Source: Escherichia coli
GTDB taxonomy: Bacteria > Pseudomonadota > Gammaproteobacteria > Enterobacterales > Enterobacteriaceae
Length of the DNA: 64,000 nucleotides
Strand: one strand, 5' to 3'
Assembly (NCBI RefSeq): GCF_009931435.1
Contig: NZ_CP043414.1
Shown in pieces: positions 17,523-58,792 of the stretch. The notes beneath the pieces were generated by a model. The model did not search any database. It saw only the letters and a program-made list of their open reading frames with translations, and was not told the DNA's origin. The position numbers and the translations under genes are program-made. Positions within the stretch are counted from its first letter, which is position 1. The number at the start of each line of letters is the position of its first letter.

Positions 17523-18707
17523 TTAATTCAATCGTTCAATCACCATCGCAATTCCTTGACCGCCGCCAATGCACAACGTTGCCAGACCCAGCGTTTTATC
17601 GCGTGCCTGCATTGCATGTAATAGTGTGACCAGAATACGCGCACCGCTGGCGCCGATAGGATGCCCCAGCGCGATGGCCCCGCCGTTGACATTCACTTTC
17701 TCAGGATCAAAGCCCAGTGTTTTCCCAACGGCAAGGAACTGCGCGGCAAATGCTTCATTGGCTTCGATAAGATCAATGTCTGCCAGCTGCAGCCCCGCCA
17801 GTTGTAACGCTTTTTGCGTGGCAGGTACTGGCCCCATACCCATCAATGCGGGGGGCACTCCACCGCTGGCATAACTTTTAATGCGAGCCAAGGGGGTAAG
17901 GCCTGCTGCCAGCGCCGTAGATTCTTCCATAATCACCAGAGCGGCAGCACCGTCGTTAATACCTGACGCGTTCCCGGCGGTGACAGTACCTGCTTTATCG
18001 AAGGCCGGACGCAATGCAGCCAGAGCTTCTGTAGTAGAATCTGGTTTCGGGAATTCGTCTTGACTGAAGACGAGGGTTTTCTTCCGGGTGACAACATTTA
18101 CCGGGACGATTTCGGCTGTAAAAGCACCGGACTCAATTGCGGCAGCCGCTTTACGCTGTGAATGTAGCGCCAGTTCATCCTGCATTTCGCGGGTAATCCC
18201 GTACTCCTTAGCCACGTTTTCGGCGGTAATTCCCATATGATAACCATGGGTGGCGCACATCAGGCCATCGCGCAGGATTACGTCATAAACCTGTCCGTCT
18301 CCCAGACGATAACCAGAGCGCGCTTTTGCATCGAGTAAGTAGGGCGCTAAACTCATATTTTCCATACCCCCCGCCACAATGCTCTGCGCCTGACCTGCCT
18401 GAATTGCCTGGGCGGCAAGCGCCACGCTTTTCAGACCCGAACCACACACTTTATTGACCGTGAATCCGCACACCGTTTCGGCCAGTCCGCTTTTTAACAA
18501 TGCCTGACGCGCCGGATTTTGCCCCAGCCCGGCTTGCAACACGTTACCCATAATCACTTCATCGATATGTTGTGAATCGATTTTTGCGCGTTCAATAGCG
18601 GCCTGAATTACTGTTGCTCCCAGATCGATGGCGCTGGTGGAGGCGAGTGAACCATTAAAACTACCGATGGCAGTACGTACCGCACTGACGATGACACAAT
18701 TTTTCAT
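17523..18707 (-). CDS. atoB: Acetyl-CoA acetyltransferase (thiolase II)
   Basis: 394-aa [20 protein letters not shown]...; thiolase catalytic-Cys region NKVCGSG; last gene of atoDAEB. Confidence 0.95.
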
Positions 18708-18737
18708 TTTATATTCCTTCTGTCTGTAAAGTTGCCG

Positions 18738-20060
18738 TCAGAACAGCGTTAAACCAATGACGAAAATGACGCCGGAGAAAAGCAGAGCAGTGATGCAATA
18801 GCCCATGATGTCGCGGACACCGAGTCCGGCGATTGCCAGTGCTGGCAGCGCCCAGAACGGTTGTGCCATGTTCATCCATTGCTCGCCGTAGGCGATCGCC
18901 ATTACCGATTTACCGAGATCGGCTCCCAGCGCCTGGGCTGCAGGTATCACGAAAGGTCCCTGAATAACCCAGTGACCGCCGCCAGACGGAACGGCGAAGT
19001 TAATCAGTGCAGAACTAAAGAAGGTCATTACCGGGAAGGTGTCTTTGTTCGCAACATTGATGAAGAATTCAGTAATGAACCCACCCAGACCGGAGTGCTC
19101 CATCATCAGTTGGATCCCGGCGTAGAAGGGGAATTGCACCAGAATACCGGCGGTACTGCGCGCAGCCGCGCTGATAGCACGCATATAAGCCATTGGCGTT
19201 TTATGTAGCAGCAGACCCGCAATCATAAACATCAGGTTGACGGTATTGATGGTGATGTTGAAGCCATGTTCGCTGAAGTACATCGCCAGGTAAGCGATAC
19301 CGAGTGCGCCGATGATCAACGTCAGGATGCGACTTTCCTCCAGTCGCTCGGATGGTGGGGCATCTTTCGGTAGCTGCTTCTGAAAATCAGCCTCTTCCAT
19401 GAGTAGTTTCGGATCGATACTCACCACGTCAGACGGTTTTGGCATCATCATGCGGGTAATAAATGGCATCACCACAATCAATGCCACAGTGATGAAAATG
19501 TTAAAACCACTGAACAGAGTATCGCCCACCGGGATAAGCCCGGCGATATGCTCAACCGGATTGCCCGGTGTGGCAGCCAACAGAGGCATTGAACCAGAGA
19601 AACCGCCACCCCAGGTAAGAAAACCAATGTAGGCGCAGGCAATGAGCAACGGATAATCAGAACCGGGTACTCGCCGGGCGACTTCACGGGCGAACATTGC
19701 TCCGACAACCAGACCAAATCCCCAGTTGATGACACAAGCGACTGAACCGAAGAAAGTGACCAGCATGACGCCCTGTACGGGCGTCTTTGCGGCGGAAGCG
19801 GCAGTACGCAGCAAGCTTTTCACCGGAGCAGAGCTGGCAAGGGCATGACCGGTAACGATGATAAGCGCCATCTGCATACCGAACGCCAGCAAGTTCCAGA
19901 AACCGTCCCCCCACATTTTCACCATGCTGATCGGCGTTTGTGGTGTTAACCAAAGCGCGATCACGAACGTTAGCAATGTCAGCAACATGGCAAAGATCAG
20001 TGGATCGGGAAGCCACCGGCTGACAAAACGCGTCATAAAACGCGAGATGCGACCAATCAT
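18738..20060 (-). CDS. atoE: Short-chain fatty acid transporter AtoE
   Basis: 440-aa polytopic membrane protein; position between atoA and atoB. Confidence 0.93.
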   Translation of the reverse strand: MIGRISRFMTRFVSRWLPDPLIFAMLLTLLTFVIALWLTPQTPISMVKMWGDGFWNLLAFGMQMALIIVTGHALASSAPVKSLLRTAASAAKTPVQGVMLVTFFGSVACVINWGFGLVVGAMFAREVARRVPGSDYPLLIACAYIGFLTWGGGFSGSMPLLAATPGNPVEHIAGLIPVGDTLFSGFNIFITVALIVVMPFITRMMMPKPSDVVSIDPKLLMEEADFQKQLPKDAPPSERLEESRILTLIIGALGIAYLAMYFSEHGFNITINTVNLMFMIAGLLLHKTPMAYMRAISAAARSTAGILVQFPFYAGIQLMMEHSGLGGFITEFFINVANKDTFPVMTFFSSALINFAVPSGGGHWVIQGPFVIPAAQALGADLGKSVMAIAYGEQWMNMAQPFWALPALAIAGLGVRDIMGYCITALLFSGVIFVIGLTLF

Positions 20061-20707
20061 AAATCACCCCGCTGCGTATTCAGATCGGCGGCGACTTCAA
20101 ACTGAGCTTCGGTTTTGGCACGCACGGTGGCTAAATCACACCCGTCGGCAATTTCGGTGAGCCACATTTTGCCGTCAATGAAACGAAAGACTGCCAGTTC
20201 AGTGACCAGCATATGCACCGCGTGTTGCGCAGTGAGCGGCATGGTGCAGCGGCGCAAAATTTTTGCTGAACCATCTTTGGCGCAATGTTCCATGGCGATG
20301 ATCACTTTGCGCGACCCGGTCACCAGATCCATCGCGCCACCCATACCGGGCACCATTTTTCCAGGCACTACCCAGTTCGCGAGGTTGGCTTCTTCGTCTA
20401 CCTGCAAACCACCGAGTACGCAGGCATCAATATGACCACCACGAATCAGCGCAAACGACATTGCGCTGTCGAACATCGCTGCGCCGGGTAAAATGCCGCA
20501 TGGTTGCCCGCCAGCGTTCACCAGATCTGGATGCGCTGTAGTGACTGGGCCTAAACCGAGGAAGCCATTTTCCGATTGCAGAGTGATATGAATATCCTCC
20601 GGTAAATAATTGGCGACCATTGTGGGTAAACCGATCCCTAAGTTAACGATGTCACCATCACGAAGCTCTTGCGCCACACGGCGCGCAATACGTTGTTTCG
20701 CATCCAT
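20057..20707 (-). CDS. atoA: Acetate CoA-transferase beta subunit
   Basis: 216-aa ORF; stop/start overlap with atoD and atoE. Confidence 0.95.
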   Translation of the reverse strand: MDAKQRIARRVAQELRDGDIVNLGIGLPTMVANYLPEDIHITLQSENGFLGLGPVTTAHPDLVNAGGQPCGILPGAAMFDSAMSFALIRGGHIDACVLGGLQVDEEANLANWVVPGKMVPGMGGAMDLVTGSRKVIIAMEHCAKDGSAKILRRCTMPLTAQHAVHMLVTELAVFRFIDGKMWLTEIADGCDLATVRAKTEAQFEVAADLNTQRGDL

Positions 20708-21369
20708 TATTTGCTCTCCTGTGAAACGATGATGTGGTCGATAACGGCACCAGGGGTGACAATATGGTCAGGTTGCAGTTCGCCGGTTTCGACCAGTTCA
20801 TCTGGCTCCACCAGCGTGATATCAGCCGCAAGGGCAATCAGGGGGTTAAAGTTGCGGGCGCTAAGTTGGTAGGTCAGGTTGCCAAGTGTGTCGCAACGAT
20901 GGGCGCGAATGAGCGCCAGGTCGGCGCGCAGTGGACGTTCAAGCAGCCAGGTTTTACCGTCGAGTGTCAGCGTCTGTTTGCCTTCCTCTACGACGGTGCC
21001 GACACCAGTTGGCGTGAGAAAACCACCAAGTCCAGCTCCACCACAGCGAATTTGCTCAATCAATGTACCTTGCGGTACGAGAACGACCTCCATTTCGCCA
21101 GAAATCATGCGCCGTCCGGTTTCCGGGTTGGTGCCGATATGTGAAGCAATTACTTTGCGGACTCGACCATTGACGATGAGCGGACCGATGCCGGTATCAA
21201 CAAACGCGGTATCATTGGCTATCAATGTCAGGTCGCGAACGCCAGATTCCAGTAATGCTTCCACCAGGCGGGATGGAGTGCCAATTCCCATAAATCCGCC
21301 CACCATGATGGTCATGCCGTCACGAAAGAAGCCGGAGGCGTCTTGTAATGTCATCAATTTTGTTTTCAT
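20707..21369 (-). CDS. atoD: Acetate CoA-transferase alpha subunit
   Basis: 220-aa [14 protein letters not shown]...; first gene of the operon downstream of a sigma54 promoter. Confidence 0.95.
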
Positions 21370-21414
21370 TATTTATCCCTCTTGCATACACCGTTGTGGG
21401 TACAGTCAGGGAAT

Positions 21415-21430
21415 AGCAAGGGGAGTGCCA
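21415..21430 (-). promoter_or_regulatory. Sigma54 (-24/-12) promoter of atoDAEB
   Basis: Minus-strand TGGCAC-tcccc-TTGCT, GG/GC spacing as in the RpoN consensus, about 45 bp upstream of the atoD ATG. Confidence 0.7.
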
Positions 21431-21512
21431 GAATGAAAATGTTTGATATTGTTTTTTAACTTATTGAATAGTAAAGAATAAATAAGGTGGGGATTAAGAG
21501 GTTGAATGAACG

Positions 21513-21553
21513 GCTATGCAGAAATTTGCGCACTGTGCAAATTTCTGCATAGC
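21513..21553. promoter_or_regulatory. AtoC enhancer site: 41-bp inverted repeat (17-bp arms) upstream of the sigma54 promoter
   Basis: gctatgcagaaatttgc-gcactgt-gcaaatttctgcatagc, perfect arms, about 100 bp upstream of the -24 element. Confidence 0.7.
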
Positions 21554-21564
21554 AAGTTTTGGCG

Positions 21565-22950
21565 TTATACATCCGCCGGATCGATACCGTATTCCTGGAG
21601 TTTATACATCAATGCACGGCGACTGATGCCCAGCATTAAAGCAGTGCGGGTTCGGTTTCCTTCTTGTTGTTCCAGCACTTCCATAATGATGCGTTTTTCG
21701 ACGCGTTTAATTTCCTCTTTTAAATTACGCTCACCGACAGGGGCTGTTTTTGCTTCACCAGCACTACAGACTGGCTGACGAATCTGCGGCGGAAGATCCT
21801 CAGAAAAAATGATCGGGCCTGAATTCATCACGACGGCGCGTTCAATAACGTTGGAAAGCTCTCGAATATTTCCCGGCCATGACCATGCGGTAAGCAGTGA
21901 CATTGCCATCGGATCGATGTCGATAATATCGCGCTGATTCTCACTACTGAATTTTTGCAAAAAGTGATTAGCTAACAGGGAAATATCTTCCCGGCGATCG
22001 CGCAGAGGCGGCAGTATTAAATGAATAACGTTAAGGCGATAAAAGAGATCTTCACGGAAGGTGCCTTCTTTCACCATTGCCTGCAAGTCGCGGTTGGTGG
22101 CAGCAATGATGCGGATATCAACTTTTATGGTCTGATGACCGCCAATCCGTTCAAATTCCCGTTCCTGCAGAATGCGTAGTAATTTGGCTTGCAGTACCAG
22201 CGGCATTTCACCAATTTCGTCAAGGAGCAGAGTACCTTCGTTGGCACGTTCAAATAATCCCTGACGCAGGGTTTGTGCACCAGTAAATGCGCCTTTTTCA
22301 TGACCAAACAGTTCACTTTCGAGCAACGATTCCGGCAGCGCCGCGCAGTTGACTTTAATAAACGGCCCCTTGGCCCGCCGCGAATTGTAGTGAATCGCTC
22401 TGGCAATCAACTCTTTCCCGGTGCCGCTTTCACCGCTAATCAAGACGCTGGCCTGAGAAAGGGCAATTTTGGCGGTGTCTTTGCAGATGTCCATCATTGC
22501 CGGGCTGTTAGTGAGAATGTGCCCCCATTGCCAACTGGTGCTTAGTGCCTGGTGCAGATGACGGATCTCTTTTTTCATTGACTGGAGTTGTAAAGCGCGC
22601 TGAACGATTAAATTCAACTCATCGAGATCAAACGGTTTGATGACATAGTCAAAGGCTCCGCAGCGTAGTGCTTCGACGGCGGTTTCCACTTCAGCATAGG
22701 CCGTCATCAGAATAACGGGTGTCCGTGTCTCATGGCTGCGCATCTCCTTGAGTGCCTTGATGCCGTCCATCTCTGGCATGCGGATATCCATCAACACCAC
22801 GTCAGGGTGAATATCGGCAAACAGGTGTAATGCTGTGCGCCCGTTGTTCGCACAATGTGTTTCGAATCCTTGTAGTGCAAAAGCGGTGCTCAGCATACGG
22901 CGAACATTATCTTCATCATCCACAATAAGGATGCGATTAATAGCAGTCAT
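21565..22950 (-). CDS. atoC: Sigma54-dependent response regulator AtoC
   Basis: 461-aa ORF; receiver domain (IVDDEDNVR..D..MPEMDG), AAA+ Walker A GESGTGKE, GAFTGA motif, C-terminal HTH. Confidence 0.95.
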   Translation of the reverse strand: MTAINRILIVDDEDNVRRMLSTAFALQGFETHCANNGRTALHLFADIHPDVVLMDIRMPEMDGIKALKEMRSHETRTPVILMTAYAEVETAVEALRCGAFDYVIKPFDLDELNLIVQRALQLQSMKKEIRHLHQALSTSWQWGHILTNSPAMMDICKDTAKIALSQASVLISGESGTGKELIARAIHYNSRRAKGPFIKVNCAALPESLLESELFGHEKGAFTGAQTLRQGLFERANEGTLLLDEIGEMPLVLQAKLLRILQEREFERIGGHQTIKVDIRIIAATNRDLQAMVKEGTFREDLFYRLNVIHLILPPLRDRREDISLLANHFLQKFSSENQRDIIDIDPMAMSLLTAWSWPGNIRELSNVIERAVVMNSGPIIFSEDLPPQIRQPVCSAGEAKTAPVGERNLKEEIKRVEKRIIMEVLEQQEGNRTRTALMLGISRRALMYKLQEYGIDPADV

Positions 22951-24773
22951 ACAGTCTGATTTCCCTGCGGGTTGATCGGTAAAATAAGCGTGAAGGTTGC
23001 GCCGTAGCCCGGCAAACTGGCGACGCGAATATCACCCTGATGGGCATTAATGATGCGTTGACTTAACGCCAGACCAAGCCCGGTTCCTGAGGCTTTGGTA
23101 GTGAAAAAGGGATCGAAGATCTTTTTTTGCAGCGAGAGATCAATGCCACTGCCGTTGTCCTCTATCGAAATGGCCTGTTGTGAGTCGCTATACTGCCAGG
23201 TTCGAATGCGAATTTTCCCTCGTGCACTGATAGCCTGGACGGCATTGATCAGGATATTCAGTAGTACCTGTTTGAGCAGTTCACGATCGGCGTTAATCGG
23301 GCTTAATTCATTATCCAGTTCGCTTATGAAGTCGACTCGCGCTTGTACGCCGGCGGTTTGTACCAGTACCAGAGTTTCTTCAACCAATGCATTGAGGCTG
23401 ACTTGTTGCCATTGACTGTGGCGTGGGCGTGAAAATTCGAGCAATTGCTGAATAACTTTGTTAATTGAATCGATTTCTTTGAGTACTACGGACAGATATT
23501 CCTGATGTATTGGGTCACTGGTTTGTTGGCGCAAGATCTGTACATAACCACGAATAGCCGTTAACGGATTACGTACTTCATGCGCCACGCCAGCCATCAG
23601 CTCACCCAGTGTGGCGAGGCGTTCAGCTTGCGCCATGCGGCGCTGGGTTTCTTTGCGGGCAGTTAAATCAGAGAAAATCACCAAAGCACCTATCATTTCA
23701 CCATGCGTATTATGAATACGACTGGTAGTGACACTGAGTTCAATGGTGCGCTCACGGCCTGGAAAACTGATCTCCAGCGCCACATGTTCGGTACCATGTT
23801 CCAGCGTATCCAGTACTGGACTGTAGAACGGAGTATTGTCGAACAACATGGAGTAAGGCTGCCCTACCAGTTCATGACGTTGATAGCCAGTGATGACTTC
23901 TGCTGCCGGGTTCATGGTGGTTACATCACCCTGGCGGTCAATGGCAATGACGCCATCGGCAGCGTTTTCAATAATCAGATCGTTAAGTGTTCGCGTTTCA
24001 CGCAGTGCCTGGGCGAGGTTGTTGACACTCTGACTAATTTGCCCCATTTCACCGGGCAATTGTGGTAATCGAGTGGGAATATTTTGCGCCAGAGTCGCGA
24101 GACCATCGGTGATGATATCTATATTGGCGCTCAGGCGACGGGAGAAAAGGACAATCAACAGCAGGCTTATCAGCAAACCGGCGGTGAGCACAATGATAAT
24201 CCTCACATCCATTTTCCAGGCCTGGCGGCGAATATCTTCGGTTAATTCATTGGCCCAGATATAACCGAGGATTTCACCATTACGCTCAATGGGGATCATT
24301 GAATTCAAAATATCGCCGCGCACCTGCCTGCCTGAATAAATCAAAGGAGTATTTGTACGCATGACTTCGCGACCAGGGTGATCTGCGGCAATAGTAACGC
24401 CCACATTATTCTGATACAGCGCTGAAGGCGCGTAAGTGATTATCGCATCCAGTGTTTTGTTGTAATAACCAGCACCTATGCCAGGAAAGGCGTGAGTGAT
24501 ATTTTCAGTAATGGGAGCAAGTTCTGCATTCAGTGCGTGGATTCGCTCCTCACGTGGTAAGTCGTTGTAGAGATCGTAGCGATCGCCTAGCGCCTGATTA
24601 AGCAGGTTGACCACGGCAGAAAGTTTTTTCTCTTTTTCAGATAAGACTGCTGAACGTCCTTCCGTTTCTACGATATAACCAATAGTAAGCGTTGGGACAA
24701 TGACCATCAGGATTGCCATCAGGATCATTTGATTGCGTAAGCGGCGTGGATAAATCCACTTCATATAATGCAT
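22947..24773 (-). CDS. atoS: Sensor histidine kinase AtoS
   Basis: Start MHYMKWIYPRR (608 aa) inside the 612-aa ORF; H-box HEVRNPL; stop overlaps the atoC start. Confidence 0.93.
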   Translation of the reverse strand: MHYMKWIYPRRLRNQMILMAILMVIVPTLTIGYIVETEGRSAVLSEKEKKLSAVVNLLNQALGDRYDLYNDLPREERIHALNAELAPITENITHAFPGIGAGYYNKTLDAIITYAPSALYQNNVGVTIAADHPGREVMRTNTPLIYSGRQVRGDILNSMIPIERNGEILGYIWANELTEDIRRQAWKMDVRIIIVLTAGLLISLLLIVLFSRRLSANIDIITDGLATLAQNIPTRLPQLPGEMGQISQSVNNLAQALRETRTLNDLIIENAADGVIAIDRQGDVTTMNPAAEVITGYQRHELVGQPYSMLFDNTPFYSPVLDTLEHGTEHVALEISFPGRERTIELSVTTSRIHNTHGEMIGALVIFSDLTARKETQRRMAQAERLATLGELMAGVAHEVRNPLTAIRGYVQILRQQTSDPIHQEYLSVVLKEIDSINKVIQQLLEFSRPRHSQWQQVSLNALVEETLVLVQTAGVQARVDFISELDNELSPINADRELLKQVLLNILINAVQAISARGKIRIRTWQYSDSQQAISIEDNGSGIDLSLQKKIFDPFFTTKASGTGLGLALSQRIINAHQGDIRVASLPGYGATFTLILPINPQGNQTV

Positions 24774-24939
24774 GCTGAATCCCACTAGTCTTGTCCGGTA
24801 TATGACGATTATCAGAGGTTAAGGTGATGATTTCTCGGCGGTGTATCATATTCCAGAGAAGAGAGAACATTGCGGTAACACGCTTTTACCGCTACCTTAA
24901 CCACACTCCATCGGTCACCTGAGGCGGAGCTTCGCCCCT

Positions 24940-27777
24940 TTGAAATACCTTGCTTCTTTTCGTACAACCCTGAAAGCCTCGCGCTACATGTTCAGAGCAT
25001 TGGCGTTAGTGCTCTGGCTGTTGATTGCTTTTTCATCCGTTTTTTACATCGTTAATGCGTTGCATCAGCGAGAATCGGAAATTCGTCAGGAATTTAATCT
25101 GAGTTCCGATCAGGCTCAGCGCTTTATTCAACGCACCTCTGATGTGATGAAAGAGCTGAAGTACATAGCTGAAAATCGCTTATCGGCAGAAAACGGTGTG
25201 CTTTCGCCGCGTGGACGAGAAACGCAGGCAGATGTGCCAGTGTTTGAACCACTGTTTGCCGACTCCGATTGTTCCGCAATGAGTAACACCTGGCGAGGTT
25301 CTCTGGAGTCATTGGCGTGGTTTATGCGCTACTGGCGCGATAATTTCTCTGCGGCTTACGATCTCAACCGGGTATTTTTAATCGGCAGCGATAACCTTTG
25401 CATGGCCAATTTCGGTCTGCGTGATATGCCAGTGGAACGCGATACCGCGTTGAAAGCTTTGCATGAACGCATCAATAAATATCGAAATGCACCACAAGAT
25501 GATAGCGGCAGTAACCTCTACTGGATCAGCGAAGGTCCGCGCCCTGGCGTCGGGTATTTTTACGCCTTGACGCCAGTTTATCTGGCGAACCGGTTGCAGG
25601 CGCTTTTAGGTGTTGAGCAGACCATCAGGATGGAGAACTTCTTCTTACCTGGTACGTTGCCGATGGGGGTAACCATTCTTGATGAAAATGGTCATACCCT
25701 GATTTCGCTTACCGGACCGGAAAGCAAGATTAAGAGCGATCCTCGCTGGATGCAGGAACGTTCCTGGTTTGGCTATACGGAAGGGTTCCGGGAACTGGTG
25801 CTGAAGAAAAACCTGCCACCTTCATCGTTAAGCATCGTCTATTCGGTGCCGGTTGATAAGGTGCTGGAGCGCATTCGCATGTTGATCCTTAACGCGATTT
25901 TACTGAATGTGCTTGCCGGAGCCGCGTTGTTTACTCTCGCACGGATGTACGAGCGGCGTATATTCATTCCTGCGGAAAGCGACGCCCTGCGACTGGAAGA
26001 GCACGAGCAGTTTAATCGCAAGATTGTCGCTTCCGCGCCAGTGGGTATCTGCATTTTGCGTACCGCTGATGGCGTTAATATTTTAAGTAACGAACTTGCG
26101 CATACCTATCTCAATATGCTTACGCATGAGGATCGCCAACGACTGACGCAAATTATTTGTGGTCAGCAGGTCAATTTTGTTGATGTCCTGACCAGCAACA
26201 ATACCAATCTGCAAATCAGCTTCGTCCATTCGCGCTATCGTAATGAAAACGTGGCTATTTGTGTGCTGGTGGATGTTTCTTCGCGCGTGAAGATGGAAGA
26301 GTCGTTGCAGGAGATGGCACAAGCAGCGGAACAGGCGAGTCAGTCAAAATCGATGTTCCTTGCCACCGTAAGTCATGAGCTGCGAACGCCGTTGTATGGC
26401 ATTATCGGTAACCTGGATCTGTTGCAAACCAAAGAGCTGCCAAAAGGCGTCGATCGTCTGGTGACGGCAATGAACAACTCTTCCAGCCTGTTGTTGAAAA
26501 TTATCAGCGATATTCTCGATTTCTCGAAAATTGAATCAGAACAGTTGAAGATCGAACCGCGTGAGTTTTCACCGCGTGAAGTGATGAACCACATCACCGC
26601 CAACTATTTACCGCTGGTGGTACGCAAGCAGCTAGGCTTGTACTGCTTTATTGAACCGGATGTGCCAGTGGCCTTAAATGGCGACCCAATGCGTTTACAG
26701 CAGGTCATCTCCAACCTGTTGAGTAACGCCATAAAATTCACCGATACCGGCTGTATAGTTCTGCATGTTCGCGCTGATGGCGATTATCTCTCTATCCGTG
26801 TTCGCGATACCGGCGTGGGGATTCCGGCGAAAGAAGTGGTGCGCTTGTTTGATCCCTTCTTCCAGGTCGGAACGGGCGTACAGCGTAACTTCCAGGGGAC
26901 TGGTCTGGGTCTGGCGATTTGTGAAAAACTGATCAGCATGATGGACGGCGACATCTCGGTAGATTCAGAACCGGGAATGGGCAGCCAGTTTACCGTGCGT
27001 ATTCCGTTGTACGGCGCTCAGTACCCGCAGAAAAAAGGCGTGGAAGGGTTGAGTGGTAAACGCTGCTGGCTGGCGGTCCGCAATGCGTCGCTCTGTCAGT
27101 TCCTGGAAACCAGTTTGCAGCGCAGCGGCATCGTCGTTACAACATACGAAGGGCAGGAACCGACTCCCGAAGATGTGTTAATCACTGACGAGGTAGTGAG
27201 CAAAAAATGGCAGGGTAGAGCGGTAGTGACCTTCTGTCGTCGCCATATTGGTATTCCGCTGGAGAAAGCGCCAGGGGAGTGGGTACACAGTGTGGCTGCA
27301 CCGCATGAGCTACCGGCATTGTTGGCGCGTATTTATTTGATCGAGATGGAGAGCGATGATCCTGCTAACGCTCTGCCGTCGACGGACAAAGCGGTCAGCG
27401 ATAACGACGATATGATGATTCTGGTCGTGGATGATCATCCGATTAACCGGCGTCTGCTTGCAGATCAGTTGGGATCGTTGGGTTATCAATGTAAAACTGC
27501 GAATGATGGCGTCGATGCGCTTAATGTACTTAGCAAGAATCATATCGATATCGTGCTTAGCGACGTCAACATGCCAAATATGGATGGTTACCGCTTGACG
27601 CAACGCATTCGTCAGTTGGGGCTGACGTTGCCGGTAATCGGAGTAACTGCTAATGCGCTGGCTGAAGAGAAGCAGCGGTGTCTGGAGTCCGGTATGGACA
27701 GTTGCCTGTCGAAGCCGGTAACGCTGGATGTTATAAAACAGACACTGACGGTATATGCCGAGAGGGTCCGGAAATCG

Positions 27778-33280: not shown

Positions 33281-34336
33281 ATGGAAATAAGCTTTACCCG
33301 CGTGGCACTGCTGGCTGCCGCGCTCTTCTTTGTTGGTTGCGATCAAAAACCACAACCCGCCAAAACCCACGCTATTGAAGTTACCGTTCTCGAAGGCAAA
33401 ACCATGGGTACCTTCTGGCGTGCCAGCATTCCGGGCATTGACGCCAAACGCAGTGCCGAACTTAAAGAAAAGATTCAGACCCAGCTGGACGCTGACGATC
33501 AGCTGCTTTCGACCTATAAAAAAGATTCCGCGCTGATGCGATTTAACGACTCGCAAAGTTTATCGCCGTGGCCGGTAAGTGAAGCGATGGCCGATATCGT
33601 CACTACCTCGCTGCGCATTGGCGCAAGGACCGATGGTGCGATGGATATAACCGTCGGGCCGCTGGTGAATCTGTGGGGCTTTGGCCCGGAACAACAGCCG
33701 GTTCAAATTCCGAGCCAGGAACAAATTGATGCGATGAAAGCCAAAACCGGCTTACAGCACCTGACGGTCATTAATCAGTCGCATCAGCAATATCTGCAAA
33801 AAGACCTGCCGGAATTATATGTCGATCTCTCCACCGTCGGCGAAGGCTATGCGGCGGATCATCTGGCACGCTTGATGGAGCAGGAAGGGATTTCCCGCTA
33901 TCTGGTGTCGGTGGGCGGCGCGCTGAACAGCCGTGGTATGAACGGTGAAGGCCAGCCGTGGCGGGTAGCGATTCAAAAACCAACTGATAAAGAAAACGCG
34001 GTTCAGGCCGTGGTGGATATCAACGGTCATGGCATTAGCACCTCTGGCAGCTACCGTAACTATTACGAACTGGACGGCAAACGTCTTTCCCATGTTATCG
34101 ATCCGCAAACCGGGCGTCCCATCGAACACAATCTGGTATCCGTGACGGTGATTGCCCCGACGGCGCTGGAAGCCGACGCCTGGGATACTGGCTTAATGGT
34201 GCTTGGGCCGGAGAAAGCCAAAGAGGTTGTTCGCCGGGAAGGGCTGGCGGTTTATATGATCACCAAAGAGGGCGATAGCTTTAAAACCTGGATGTCGCCA
34301 CAGTTTAAAAGCTTCCTGGTGAGCGAAAAAAATTAA
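33281..34336 (+). CDS. apbE: FAD:protein FMN transferase ApbE (lipoprotein)
   Basis: 351-aa ORF; lipobox-like LFFVGC signal; gene order between ompC and ada. Confidence 0.93.
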   Translation: MEISFTRVALLAAALFFVGCDQKPQPAKTHAIEVTVLEGKTMGTFWRASIPGIDAKRSAELKEKIQTQLDADDQLLSTYKKDSALMRFNDSQSLSPWPVSEAMADIVTTSLRIGARTDGAMDITVGPLVNLWGFGPEQQPVQIPSQEQIDAMKAKTGLQHLTVINQSHQQYLQKDLPELYVDLSTVGEGYAADHLARLMEQEGISRYLVSVGGALNSRGMNGEGQPWRVAIQKPTDKENAVQAVVDINGHGISTSGSYRNYYELDGKRLSHVIDPQTGRPIEHNLVSVTVIAPTALEADAWDTGLMVLGPEKAKEVVRREGLAVYMITKEGDSFKTWMSPQFKSFLVSEKN

Positions 34337-56957: not shown

Positions 56958-57031
56958 ACTCGTGGCTGCTAATACTACCGTTTTCCACAACGAATGCAAG
57001 TAAGATATTTCGCTAACTGATTTATAATTAA

Positions 57032-58792
57032 TCAGTTAGCGATAAAACGCTTCTCGTCTGTCAGCACCTGCAATAACAAACTTAACTGTGGTTTTTCATC
57101 TTTCACTCTTTCACCACGTAAGTTGTACGTGCGGTATTTACCGTTATTGTTCAGCACTAACGTCATTTTCGGGGTGGTAATTGCCAGCGTATCGTTATCC
57201 GCAGCCGTAACCCAGTAATGACGGCGTTGGGGGTTGAACAAATCCTGACCTTGTGAATATTCGCTGGCAGGTGTGCTGACATGTAGCAGGCGTTGCATCA
57301 GTGTCGTCATCAGATCGGTATGATCGGTCAGGGCATTAATACGCTGCGCCGGTGTGCCGGGCCAGTGAATCACTAATGGCACCTGAAGATGACCGTGGGA
57401 CCAGTCAAAGGTTTCTTCCCCTTCGTTCAGCGGAATACCCCGACCGGCAGTGATAATCACTACCGTATTGACCAGTTTGCCGGAATCACGCAGCGCATTT
57501 AGCACGCGGTTGATCTGGTCATCAACATTGCCTGCCGCCCGGCTATATTTCCGTGCAAATGCCAGCTGATTGCTGTCGTCAATGTTAGTGCCATTGAAAG
57601 ACACCCACGAGAACCAGCGGTTATCTTCTTGTGCGTAGCGGCCCAGCCAGTTGATCCACTGCGTGGCGGTCTGCTCGTCGGATTGGGTACGTACGCTCGG
57701 CATCGAGAAATCTGACAACAATGCCTGGCGATACAGCGGGCTGGTAAAGCCATCTGATGAGAATAACCCCAGCTGATAGCCTTGCTGATTAAGCGCAGTA
57801 ATTAACGCCGCAGGCGTACGGGTCGACAGAATGCCGTCCATATAGCTTGGCGAGATGCCATAGAACAGGCCAAAGATGCCGTTGTCTGTAGTGTTGCCGG
57901 AGCTCATATGGCGCGTGAACGAAATATTTTGCTCAGCAAAACCTGCCAGCGCAGGCATCTGCTTCTCGAAGCGTGAGTAGTTCAGGCCATCGACAGTAAT
58001 CAACAGCACATTCTGCCCGGTGCCCATATCGCGATAGCGCAGTTCGCTTAACGGATACTGAACGGAAACAGCGTCTGGGTTACCTTGCTCAATGAGACGG
58101 CGTTGATACTCTTGTGCATCAAGCAAACCATGCTTCTCAAGAAAACGTCGTGCCGTCATCGGGTACGAAAGCGGCAGGTTAGCGCGCTGCATGGTGATCG
58201 GGCGATAGAAGTTGGCATCGGCCCAGATATACACCACATGCGAGGCAATAAAAGCGATAAATAAGAATGCGGCCAGCGGGCGCACGAAGCGCCGACGACG
58301 CGTCAGGCTGCGTAGCTTTTGCCAGCTCCACGTCGCAAACACCAGTTCAAGCAATAAAATAACCGGCACGCTAATGAACATCAGCTGCCAGTCGCGCGCC
58401 ATCTCATTTTCGTCTGGGTTGATAACCAACTGCCAGACGATGGGATTAAGATGGAGATGGAAACGAGTAAAGACTTCGCTATCGATCAGTAATAGCGTCA
58501 TTCCCGCCGTTGCTAAAATGACGGACAAAAACCTCATCAGCCTCTGGGAGCCGACGATAAAAGTCAGCGGGAAGAGGATCAGCAAGTAGGTGGCGAACAC
58601 CAGGAAGCTGAAATGGCCGATAATGCTTACGTAGGAATAAATGCGACCAGCAAGCGTTGTCGGCCAGTCGGCGATAAACAGGTAACGGCTGCCAATGACG
58701 AGCGAAAGCAGAATATTGAACAGTGCAAACCAGTGCCCCCAACTGACCATCTGAGAGACTTTTTCACGGTAGCGCTGACGATGAGTTACCAT
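57032..58792 (-). CDS. yejM: Inner-membrane protein YejM (LapC), sulfatase-like periplasmic domain
   Basis: 586-aa ORF MVTHRQRYREK...; five N-terminal TM helices. Confidence 0.95.
   Translation of the reverse strand: MVTHRQRYREKVSQMVSWGHWFALFNILLSLVIGSRYLFIADWPTTLAGRIYSYVSIIGHFSFLVFATYLLILFPLTFIVGSQRLMRFLSVILATAGMTLLLIDSEVFTRFHLHLNPIVWQLVINPDENEMARDWQLMFISVPVILLLELVFATWSWQKLRSLTRRRRFVRPLAAFLFIAFIASHVVYIWADANFYRPITMQRANLPLSYPMTARRFLEKHGLLDAQEYQRRLIEQGNPDAVSVQYPLSELRYRDMGTGQNVLLITVDGLNYSRFEKQMPALAGFAEQNISFTRHMSSGNTTDNGIFGLFYGISPSYMDGILSTRTPAALITALNQQGYQLGLFSSDGFTSPLYRQALLSDFSMPSVRTQSDEQTATQWINWLGRYAQEDNRWFSWVSFNGTNIDDSNQLAFARKYSRAAGNVDDQINRVLNALRDSGKLVNTVVIITAGRGIPLNEGEETFDWSHGHLQVPLVIHWPGTPAQRINALTDHTDLMTTLMQRLLHVSTPASEYSQGQDLFNPQRRHYWVTAADNDTLAITTPKMTLVLNNNGKYRTYNLRGERVKDEKPQLSLLLQVLTDEKRFIAN

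Follow-up and report, generated by a model that had tools for sequence, protein, structure and literature searches.

The DNA analyzed here, referred to as the window, is a 64-kb stretch with the gene order of the Escherichia coli chromosome, running from gyrA through yfaA, yfaT, an alpha-2-macroglobulin gene (named yfaS in K-12), yfaQ, yfaP, atoBEAD, atoCS, rcsCBD and ompC to the nap and ccm genes. The ato genes are all read from the minus strand. The interval between the atoC stop codon (TAA, 21567-21565) and the atoD start codon (ATG at 21369) holds a set of regulatory elements (Table 1). The open frame of atoS reaches a GTG at 24785; the start given in Table 1 follows the annotation of a genome whose atoC-atoD intergenic region is identical. 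AtoC contains the Pfam domains Response_reg, Sigma54_activat, AAA_lid_14 and HTH_8, has the GAFTGA motif in its translation, and is identical to a K-12-type AtoC at 459 of 461 positions (99.6%). All six ORFs (AtoS, AtoC, AtoD, AtoA, AtoE and AtoB) are full length, and the domains of AtoS, AtoD, AtoA, AtoE and AtoB are complete, such that the ato locus in this strain looks functional from its sequence. The original prediction, which was made from the letters of the window, held that the ato regulon is intact. This is borne out for the six ato genes, on which alone the judgment is made; rpoN, ihfA and ihfB lie outside the window.

Table 1. Features of the ato locus, with window coordinates and, for segments of the intergenic region, sequence identity to relatives
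Feature	Position	Strand	Mean identity, E. coli vs Citrobacter	Identity to K-12	Description
atoS	22947..24773	-			Sensor histidine kinase (HAMP-PAS-HisKA-HATPase_c); ORF and Pfam domains
atoC	21565..22950	-			461-aa bacterial enhancer-binding protein: REC, AAA+ sigma-54 interaction domain (GAFTGA), Fis-type HTH
AtoC enhancer (UAS)	21513..21553	minus-strand reading, 21553-21513	89%		41-bp palindrome; two 20-bp AtoC sites, inverted about a central G
Promoter-distal AtoC half-site	21534..21553	-			GCTATGCAGAAATTTGCACA; -184..-165 from atoD ATG; same as the tested K-12 site
Promoter-proximal AtoC half-site	21513..21532	+			GCTATGCAGAAATTTGCGCA; -163..-144 from atoD ATG; one base from K-12 GCTATGCAGAAAATTGCGCA
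Spacer A	21470..21512	-	38%	70%	Fast-evolving; C-rich and G-poor on the transcribed strand; sequence diverged, composition conserved
IHF-like box	21457..21469	-	77% (13-bp box ATTCAAnnnnTTA)		ATTCAATAAGTTA; 8/9 match to IHF consensus WATCAANNNNTTR; between enhancer and promoter
Spacer B			49%	72%	
Sigma-54 -24/-12 promoter	21415..21431	-	79% (17-mer)		CTGGCACTCCCCTTGCT; GG 21429-21428, GC 21417-21416; specified core TGGCAY-N5-TTGCW invariant
Predicted transcription start	21404..21407	-			21404 by motif-centre rule; 21407 by reported footprint coordinates
-12-to-ATG stretch	21370..21414	-	78%		Includes 5' UTR and Shine-Dalgarno GAGGG (21381-21377)
atoD-atoA-atoE-atoB operon	17523..21369	-			CoA-transferase alpha and beta subunits, SCFA transporter, thiolase

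Some features of the window and of its closest relatives at this locus are recorded here in their own right. Three genomes are 100% identical to the window over the atoC-atoD intergenic region. One of these, E. coli RMDEC465, has a group II intron (with the ltrA reverse transcriptase/maturase) inside atoC, which is uninterrupted in the window. A 1254-aa ORF occupies window positions 625-4389; the corresponding place in MFDS1022581, a genome also identical in the ato intergenic region, is taken up by nrdA, ypaB and a truncated hypothetical gene, so that the two differ in structure at the left end of the window. At 57010-57042, a 33-bp near-perfect palindrome, TCGCTAACTGATTTAT-A-ATTAATCAGTTAGCGA (16-nt arms, 94% complementary, 1 nt apart), sits at the 3' end of a minus-strand ORF (57032-58792) and looks like an operator.

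The core of the promoter, TGGCAC-N5-TTGCT (TGGCACTCCCCTTGCT, 21430-21415 on the minus strand), has its GG and GC doublets exactly 10 bp apart. There are 45 nt between the final T of TTGCT and the atoD start codon, in agreement with the distance of about 45 bp originally predicted. The 17-mer in the window is letter-identical to OS21, the K-12 atoD site from sigma-54 ChIP-seq, which has a FAT score of 5 for its peak, atoD as its downstream gene, and the EcoCyc flag “experimentally confirmed” (PMC4591121). ChIP occupancy at OS21 in K-12 is modest. The RpoN holoenzyme selects the atoC/atoD spacer in genomic SELEX (PMC8743547). Binding of RNA polymerase-sigma-54 is known for the identical 17-mer of K-12 and would be expected at the promoter in the window. 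For OS21, the predicted start lies 35 nt before atoD, following a rule that places the start 19 nt downstream of the motif centre (PMC4591121). Applied to the window, the same rule points to 21404. We take 21407 as the other candidate for +1, from the footprint coordinates reported for K-12, and transcription is predicted to start within 21404-21407, ~35-38 nt upstream of atoD. A promoter scan of the spacer found no sigma-70-like promoter on the atoD strand, and one site at chance level on the opposite strand.

How well does the promoter stand out by its letters? Exact matches to TGGCACNNNNNTTGCW number one in the window, at the atoD promoter, with 0.21 expected by chance; 3.5 matches per window are expected if one mismatch is allowed. 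A formal scan used a position weight matrix (PWM) built from 134 ChIP-seq sites (PMC4591121 Tables 1 and 2), with the atoD site left out. The atoD promoter matched at 12.9 bits, inside the range of the true sites (6.9-20.4 bits) and at their 25th percentile. Two intragenic sites score higher, which puts it third among the ~128,000 positions of the window, and ~4.8 sites scoring 12.9 bits are expected in random 64 kb. Thus, the scan recovers the promoter, though it does not single it out. The modest score reflects the C-rich TCCCC spacer between the -24 and -12 boxes, meaning that the original description of the element as near-consensus is apt for the core and too generous for the spacer. The promoter motif by itself is not statistically compelling; what is compelling is its combination with position, orientation and conservation, and support for the promoter therefore comes from context and conservation rather than from the PWM score. 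The two intragenic sites are TTGGCGTGGTTTATGCG (25312-25328, plus strand; 14.4 bits), in the sense direction inside rcsC, and CTGGCTCGGAATTTGAA (33702-33718, minus strand; 13.7 bits), antisense inside apbE. Neither rcsC nor apbE appears among the 135 high-stringency K-12 sigma-54 ChIP-seq sites in the tables of PMC4591121.

Upstream of the promoter lies the enhancer palindrome, which reads GCTATGCAGAAATTTGC-ACAGTGC-GCAAATTTCTGCATAGC on the minus strand and begins 11 nt past the atoC stop codon. A 41-bp inverted repeat with perfect 17-bp arms had been predicted here, and the arms do align on re-reading, with perfect complementarity over 17 nt; a repeat finder reports arms of 20 nt, 95% complementary (19/20) and separated by 1 nt. 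The palindrome is the top-ranked local inverted repeat of the entire 64-kb window and occurs in one copy per genome in E. coli. A search for the AtoC half-site motif elsewhere in the window found none, even allowing three mismatches. The palindrome is clearly more than chance. It is separated from TGGCAC by a gap of 82 bp, and its centre lies 104 bp from the first G of GG, consistent with the predicted placement about 100 bp further upstream. The interval originally given, 21415-21553, coincides with the outer limits of promoter and palindrome. Measured from the predicted start (+1 = 21407 or 21404), the centre is ~126-129 bp upstream.

The palindrome corresponds closely to the sites characterized in K-12, where AtoC binds a 40-bp inverted palindrome, made up of two 20-bp sites, upstream of atoDAEB (PMC3118216). 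Counted from the atoD start, the K-12 sites verified in vivo span -184..-165 (GCTATGCAGAAATTTGCACA) and -163..-144 (GCTATGCAGAAAATTGCGCA) (PMC3118216 Table 5). Comparison with the window finds the same offsets for both, an identical distal site, and a proximal site that is one base off, giving 39/40 matching bases. In K-12, the palindrome elements control acetoacetate inducibility, and atoDAEB expression is sigma-54-dependent (PMC3118216). The symmetry of the palindrome is also a property of related sequences: across 11 aligned sequences, 96.7% of arm cells are complementary. Two pairs have changed on both arms, from G/C to A/T in a divergent Escherichia locus and from A/T to T/A in Citrobacter, and dyad symmetry is maintained through both substitutions. 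Four pairs are broken in some sequences, including the T-T opposition of the K-12-type sequences examined. An A/C asymmetry beside the palindrome centre never varies. All of the Escherichia and Citrobacter sequences compared share one AtoC HTH sequence, and since the A/T step of the palindrome varies between these genera nonetheless, this step is probably not a base-specific AtoC contact.

What parts of the intergenic region are conserved beyond E. coli? Relatives were collected by an AtoC scan of species-representative genomes, which yielded a divergent Escherichia locus, five Citrobacter loci, and two distant loci from metagenome-assembled genomes (MAGs). The stop-to-start interval was aligned for 13 sequences, and segment scores were taken from 12 of these, with the deletion strain CUVM53 left out. 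Four conserved islands sit at fixed geometry with fast-evolving spacers between them: the palindrome, the ATTCAAnnnnTTA box, the -24/-12 element, and the stretch from -12 to ATG (Table 1). In every enterobacterial sequence aligned, 11 nt separate the atoC stop from the palindrome, the palindrome centre is 103-107 bp from GG across the aligned sequences, and TTGCW is exactly 45 nt from ATG in all 12 sequences that keep the -12 element. Conservation from -12 to ATG matches that of the promoter, and 35 of the 45 columns show no variation among the Escherichia and Citrobacter sequences. The mRNA 5' end is predicted to form a small hairpin (GUACCC...GG.GUAU, -6 kcal/mol); its pairs never vary, and it thus has no support from covariation.

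In E. coli CUVM53, a natural deletion fuses the promoter TGGCACTCC to an identical TGGCACTCC inside atoD (window 21283-21275). The deletion (equivalent to window 21422-21275) takes away the -12 element together with the 5' UTR and the first atoD codons, and atoD is annotated as a pseudogene; it looks like a microhomology-mediated event. In a Nitrospiraceae MAG (locus L009, cis region at 5383-5520), atoS-atoC is followed by a TGCGCA-type inverted repeat directly after the stop, TGGCATGTCTGTTGCT, and atoD-atoA-atoE; the promoter has the form TGGCATG-N4-TTGCT, and AtoC is 56% identical. A Deltaproteobacteria MAG (5374-5540 of locus L010) has the same cis layout, with a TGCGCA-type repeat and then TGGCATG-N4-TTGCT. 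The AtoC identity of these two distant loci is 56-57%. The cis layout thus goes along with the gene module.

Between the enhancer and the promoter, the IHF-like box matches the IHF consensus with one mismatch, a kind of match that is common: there are 64 one-mismatch matches in the window and 50.5 expected. The box lies ~59 bp upstream of the predicted start, which is the usual position of IHF at sigma-54 promoters. Escherichia and Citrobacter keep it as ATTCAAnnnnTTA, changed by one base in two of the Citrobacter loci, at 38-40 bp upstream of GG, while its flanks diverge. In 2007, Matta and colleagues reportedly found IHF to be required for AtoC-activated transcription. A literature search for a link between IHF and atoDAEB found nothing usable. 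A bend at this box would most likely be made by IHF. The spacers around the box have diverged in sequence while keeping a skewed composition. In all 13 Escherichia and Citrobacter sequences, the first 45 nt behind the palindrome contain 13-18 C and 0-4 G, and the whole spacer of 81-85 nt contains 19-24 C versus 1-7 G. The spacer of the window has 20 C and 2 G in 82 nt, an excess of C over G that is in the top 0.45% of 82-nt windows here, with windows of comparable skew at about fifty other places. A sub-threshold Rfam match in the spacer, to a miRNA hairpin, was taken as chance.

The sequence variant found in the window is rare. A perfect-arm palindrome is present in 16 of 3563 complete E. coli genomes (44-bp query), and most of the other 3547 have one or two mismatches; the usual E. 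coli palindrome, including the K-12-type sequence checked, has one. The perfectly symmetric AtoC site is thus a rare E. coli allele. The intergenic haplotype as a whole (195-bp region) is similarly infrequent: of 3923 ato-positive complete genomes, 16 reach an identity of 95% or more. Identity of this region is 90-95% in 471 genomes and 80-90% in 3436, which indicates that there are several deep allele classes. With a 351-bp query, most E. coli are just 92-94% identical. No match to the atoC-atoD intergenic region was found in 1503 of 5426 complete E. coli genomes, meaning that the ato locus, or at least this part of it, is absent from ~28% of strains. The divergence is local. When identity to a K-12-like genome is followed in 100-bp bins over 13 kb, most bins are at 94-100%, a few gene-internal bins are at 85-90%, and the lowest, at 82%, holds the spacer (window 21432-21512). 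Relative to K-12, the spacer has ~20 substitutions in 82 bp, no indels, and identical distances. The possibility of a divergent Escherichia species was rejected, since AtoC shares 99.6% identity with K-12 and the differences cluster in the spacer.

Taken together with published work, the feature is very likely the enhancer-dependent sigma-54 promoter of atoDAEB, the acetoacetate and short-chain-fatty-acid operon of E. coli, looped via a probable IHF bend. The elements are present, they are identical or nearly identical to the characterized K-12 sites, they keep the same geometry from genus to genus, and the proteins are intact. Expression would proceed as follows. AtoS would sense acetoacetate and phosphorylate AtoC, which would bind both of the inverted 20-bp sites (21553-21513) and assemble into an active AAA+ oligomer. 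Bending at ATTCAATAAGTTA (21469-21457), by IHF or an equivalent, would loop AtoC onto the closed complex of RNA polymerase-sigma-54 on CTGGCACTCCCCTTGCT. ATP hydrolysis, acting via the GAFTGA loop, would open the complex, and transcription would begin ~35-38 nt upstream of atoD and continue through atoDAEB. It is by analogy with published K-12 work that AtoC and sigma-54 would be expected to bind in this strain, that acetoacetate would induce the operon, that IHF would be needed, and that the start site is placed where it is.

The closest known system is the K-12 atoDAEB promoter itself (Matta et al. 2007 as cited in PMC3118216; OS21 in PMC4591121), at the same locus and with the same gene order. 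The 17-mer and the distal AtoC site are identical to K-12, the enhancer occupies the same positions (-184..-144) at the same distances, and AtoC matches at 459/461 residues. In contrast to K-12, the window has one changed base in the proximal site, which makes the 17-nt arms perfect, and ~20 substitutions in the spacer. The loci of Citrobacter (C. youngae, C. werkmanii and three Citrobacter sp.) resemble the window in having the palindrome 11 nt after the stop, a ATTCAAnnnnTTA-type box 38-40 bp from GG, TGGCAY-N5-TTGCW at 45 nt to ATG, and an identical AtoC HTH. They differ in that their spacers are unalignable, the -24/-12 spacer is CCGGC, TCCGC or TCTGC, and the central A/T step is AATTTT/AAAATT rather than the AAATTT/AAATTT of E. 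coli, a symmetric change. At a greater distance, NtrC at glnAp2 and PrpR at prpBCDE represent the textbook class of IHF-assisted, enhancer-dependent sigma-54 promoters. Both pair a bacterial enhancer-binding protein of the REC/AAA+ (GAFTGA)/Fis-type HTH kind and dyad sites >100 bp upstream with an A/T-rich bend site in between and a GG-N10-GC promoter; the same pieces are seen here, the bend site as a probable one. A reference title quoted in PMC2965739 names prpR, ntrA and ihf as needed for prpBCDE. The ato system differs from both in its regulator, its acetoacetate signal and its site sequence, and in having an enhancer that lies right against the 3' end of the gene for its regulator. The domains of AtoC, the identity to OS21 and the K-12 AtoC sites all agree with the original reading of a textbook enhancer-dependent promoter served by a GAFTGA regulator, and the feature had indeed been described for E. 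coli, as was claimed (PMC3118216, PMC4591121, PMC8743547).

Could the -24/-12 match have arisen by chance, with atoDAEB transcribed from another promoter? The PWM gives this some room, with ~4.8 hits of equal score expected in 64 kb and two intragenic positions scoring higher. Yet this is the sole exact core match in the window, the atoD strand of the spacer has no sigma-70-like promoter, and the genera compared all keep TGGCAY-N5-TTGCW, always 45 nt from ATG. Together with identity to a ChIP-verified K-12 site, this conservation effectively excludes a chance motif. Much less remote, though still improbable, is the idea that the rare allele behaves unlike that of K-12, with the symmetrized palindrome and the diverged spacer altering AtoC affinity or IHF looping and, through these, the basal expression or inducibility of atoDAEB. 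Its appeal lies in the rarity of the palindrome (16/3563) and of the spacer allele (16/3923), and in the low identity of spacers A and B to K-12 (70% and 72%) next to flanking genes that are mostly at ~95-100% in 100-bp bins. However, every position conserved across genera is unchanged in the window, the distances equal those of K-12 with no indels, and the differing A/T step is itself variable between genera with an identical AtoC HTH.

A further proposal is an addition to the main explanation, not an alternative to it: the enhancer palindrome may also be the 3' stem-loop of the atoSC mRNA, with the C-rich, G-poor spacer behind it serving to load Rho, in the manner of a rut site. Any transcript running on from atoSC would in that case be terminated and its 3' end cut back to the hairpin, insulating atoDAEB from uninduced transcription. 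We regard this as unlikely, if less so than altered behavior of the allele. The hairpin follows the atoC stop by 11 nt in every enterobacterial sequence, and the palindrome folds as RNA at -30.2 kcal/mol (z = -7.1), with pairing kept where two pairs have changed on both arms. But a site bound by a dimer would show dyad symmetry anyway, changes on one arm break pairing rather than giving G-U wobble (U-U in K-12-type sequences, A-C in two Citrobacter loci), and the invariant A/C asymmetry near the centre is easier to reconcile with protein contacts than with a stem. The spacer keeps C far above G in all 13 sequences despite 38% identity, and its excess of C over G is in the top 0.45% for the window, although about fifty other places in the window have 82-nt windows that are similarly skewed. 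In one terminator study, the 3' ends of Rho-dependent transcripts are reportedly commonly trimmed back to a stem-loop. At the ato palindrome, the predicted hairpin is strong but has no U-tract or T-run behind it, which is not the make-up of an intrinsic (Rho-independent) terminator, and a terminator scan found no terminator-like site. Intrinsic terminators are contrasted with Rho-dependent transcripts in the abstract of PMC6061677. A search of Term-seq papers for atoC 3'-end data found none. If true, the double role would give a functional reason for the position of the enhancer exactly 11 nt after the regulator stop codon; placement after the stop is kept in the Escherichia and Citrobacter loci examined, and approximately in the distant MAG loci.

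What does the enhancer-dependent atoDAEB promoter of this strain mean more broadly? First, it serves as a positive control: a reading of the raw sequence placed a published enhancer-dependent promoter to the base. Second, a sigma-54 PWM alone would not single out the atoD promoter, which calls for caution with regulon scans that rely on a PWM only. Third, the analysis adds a cross-genus footprint with a conserved IHF-like box and fixed geometry, and a rare symmetric AtoC allele. These additions leave the understanding of the ato system unchanged: this is an already known, ordinary and expected feature of E. coli, present and intact here in a rare sequence variant.
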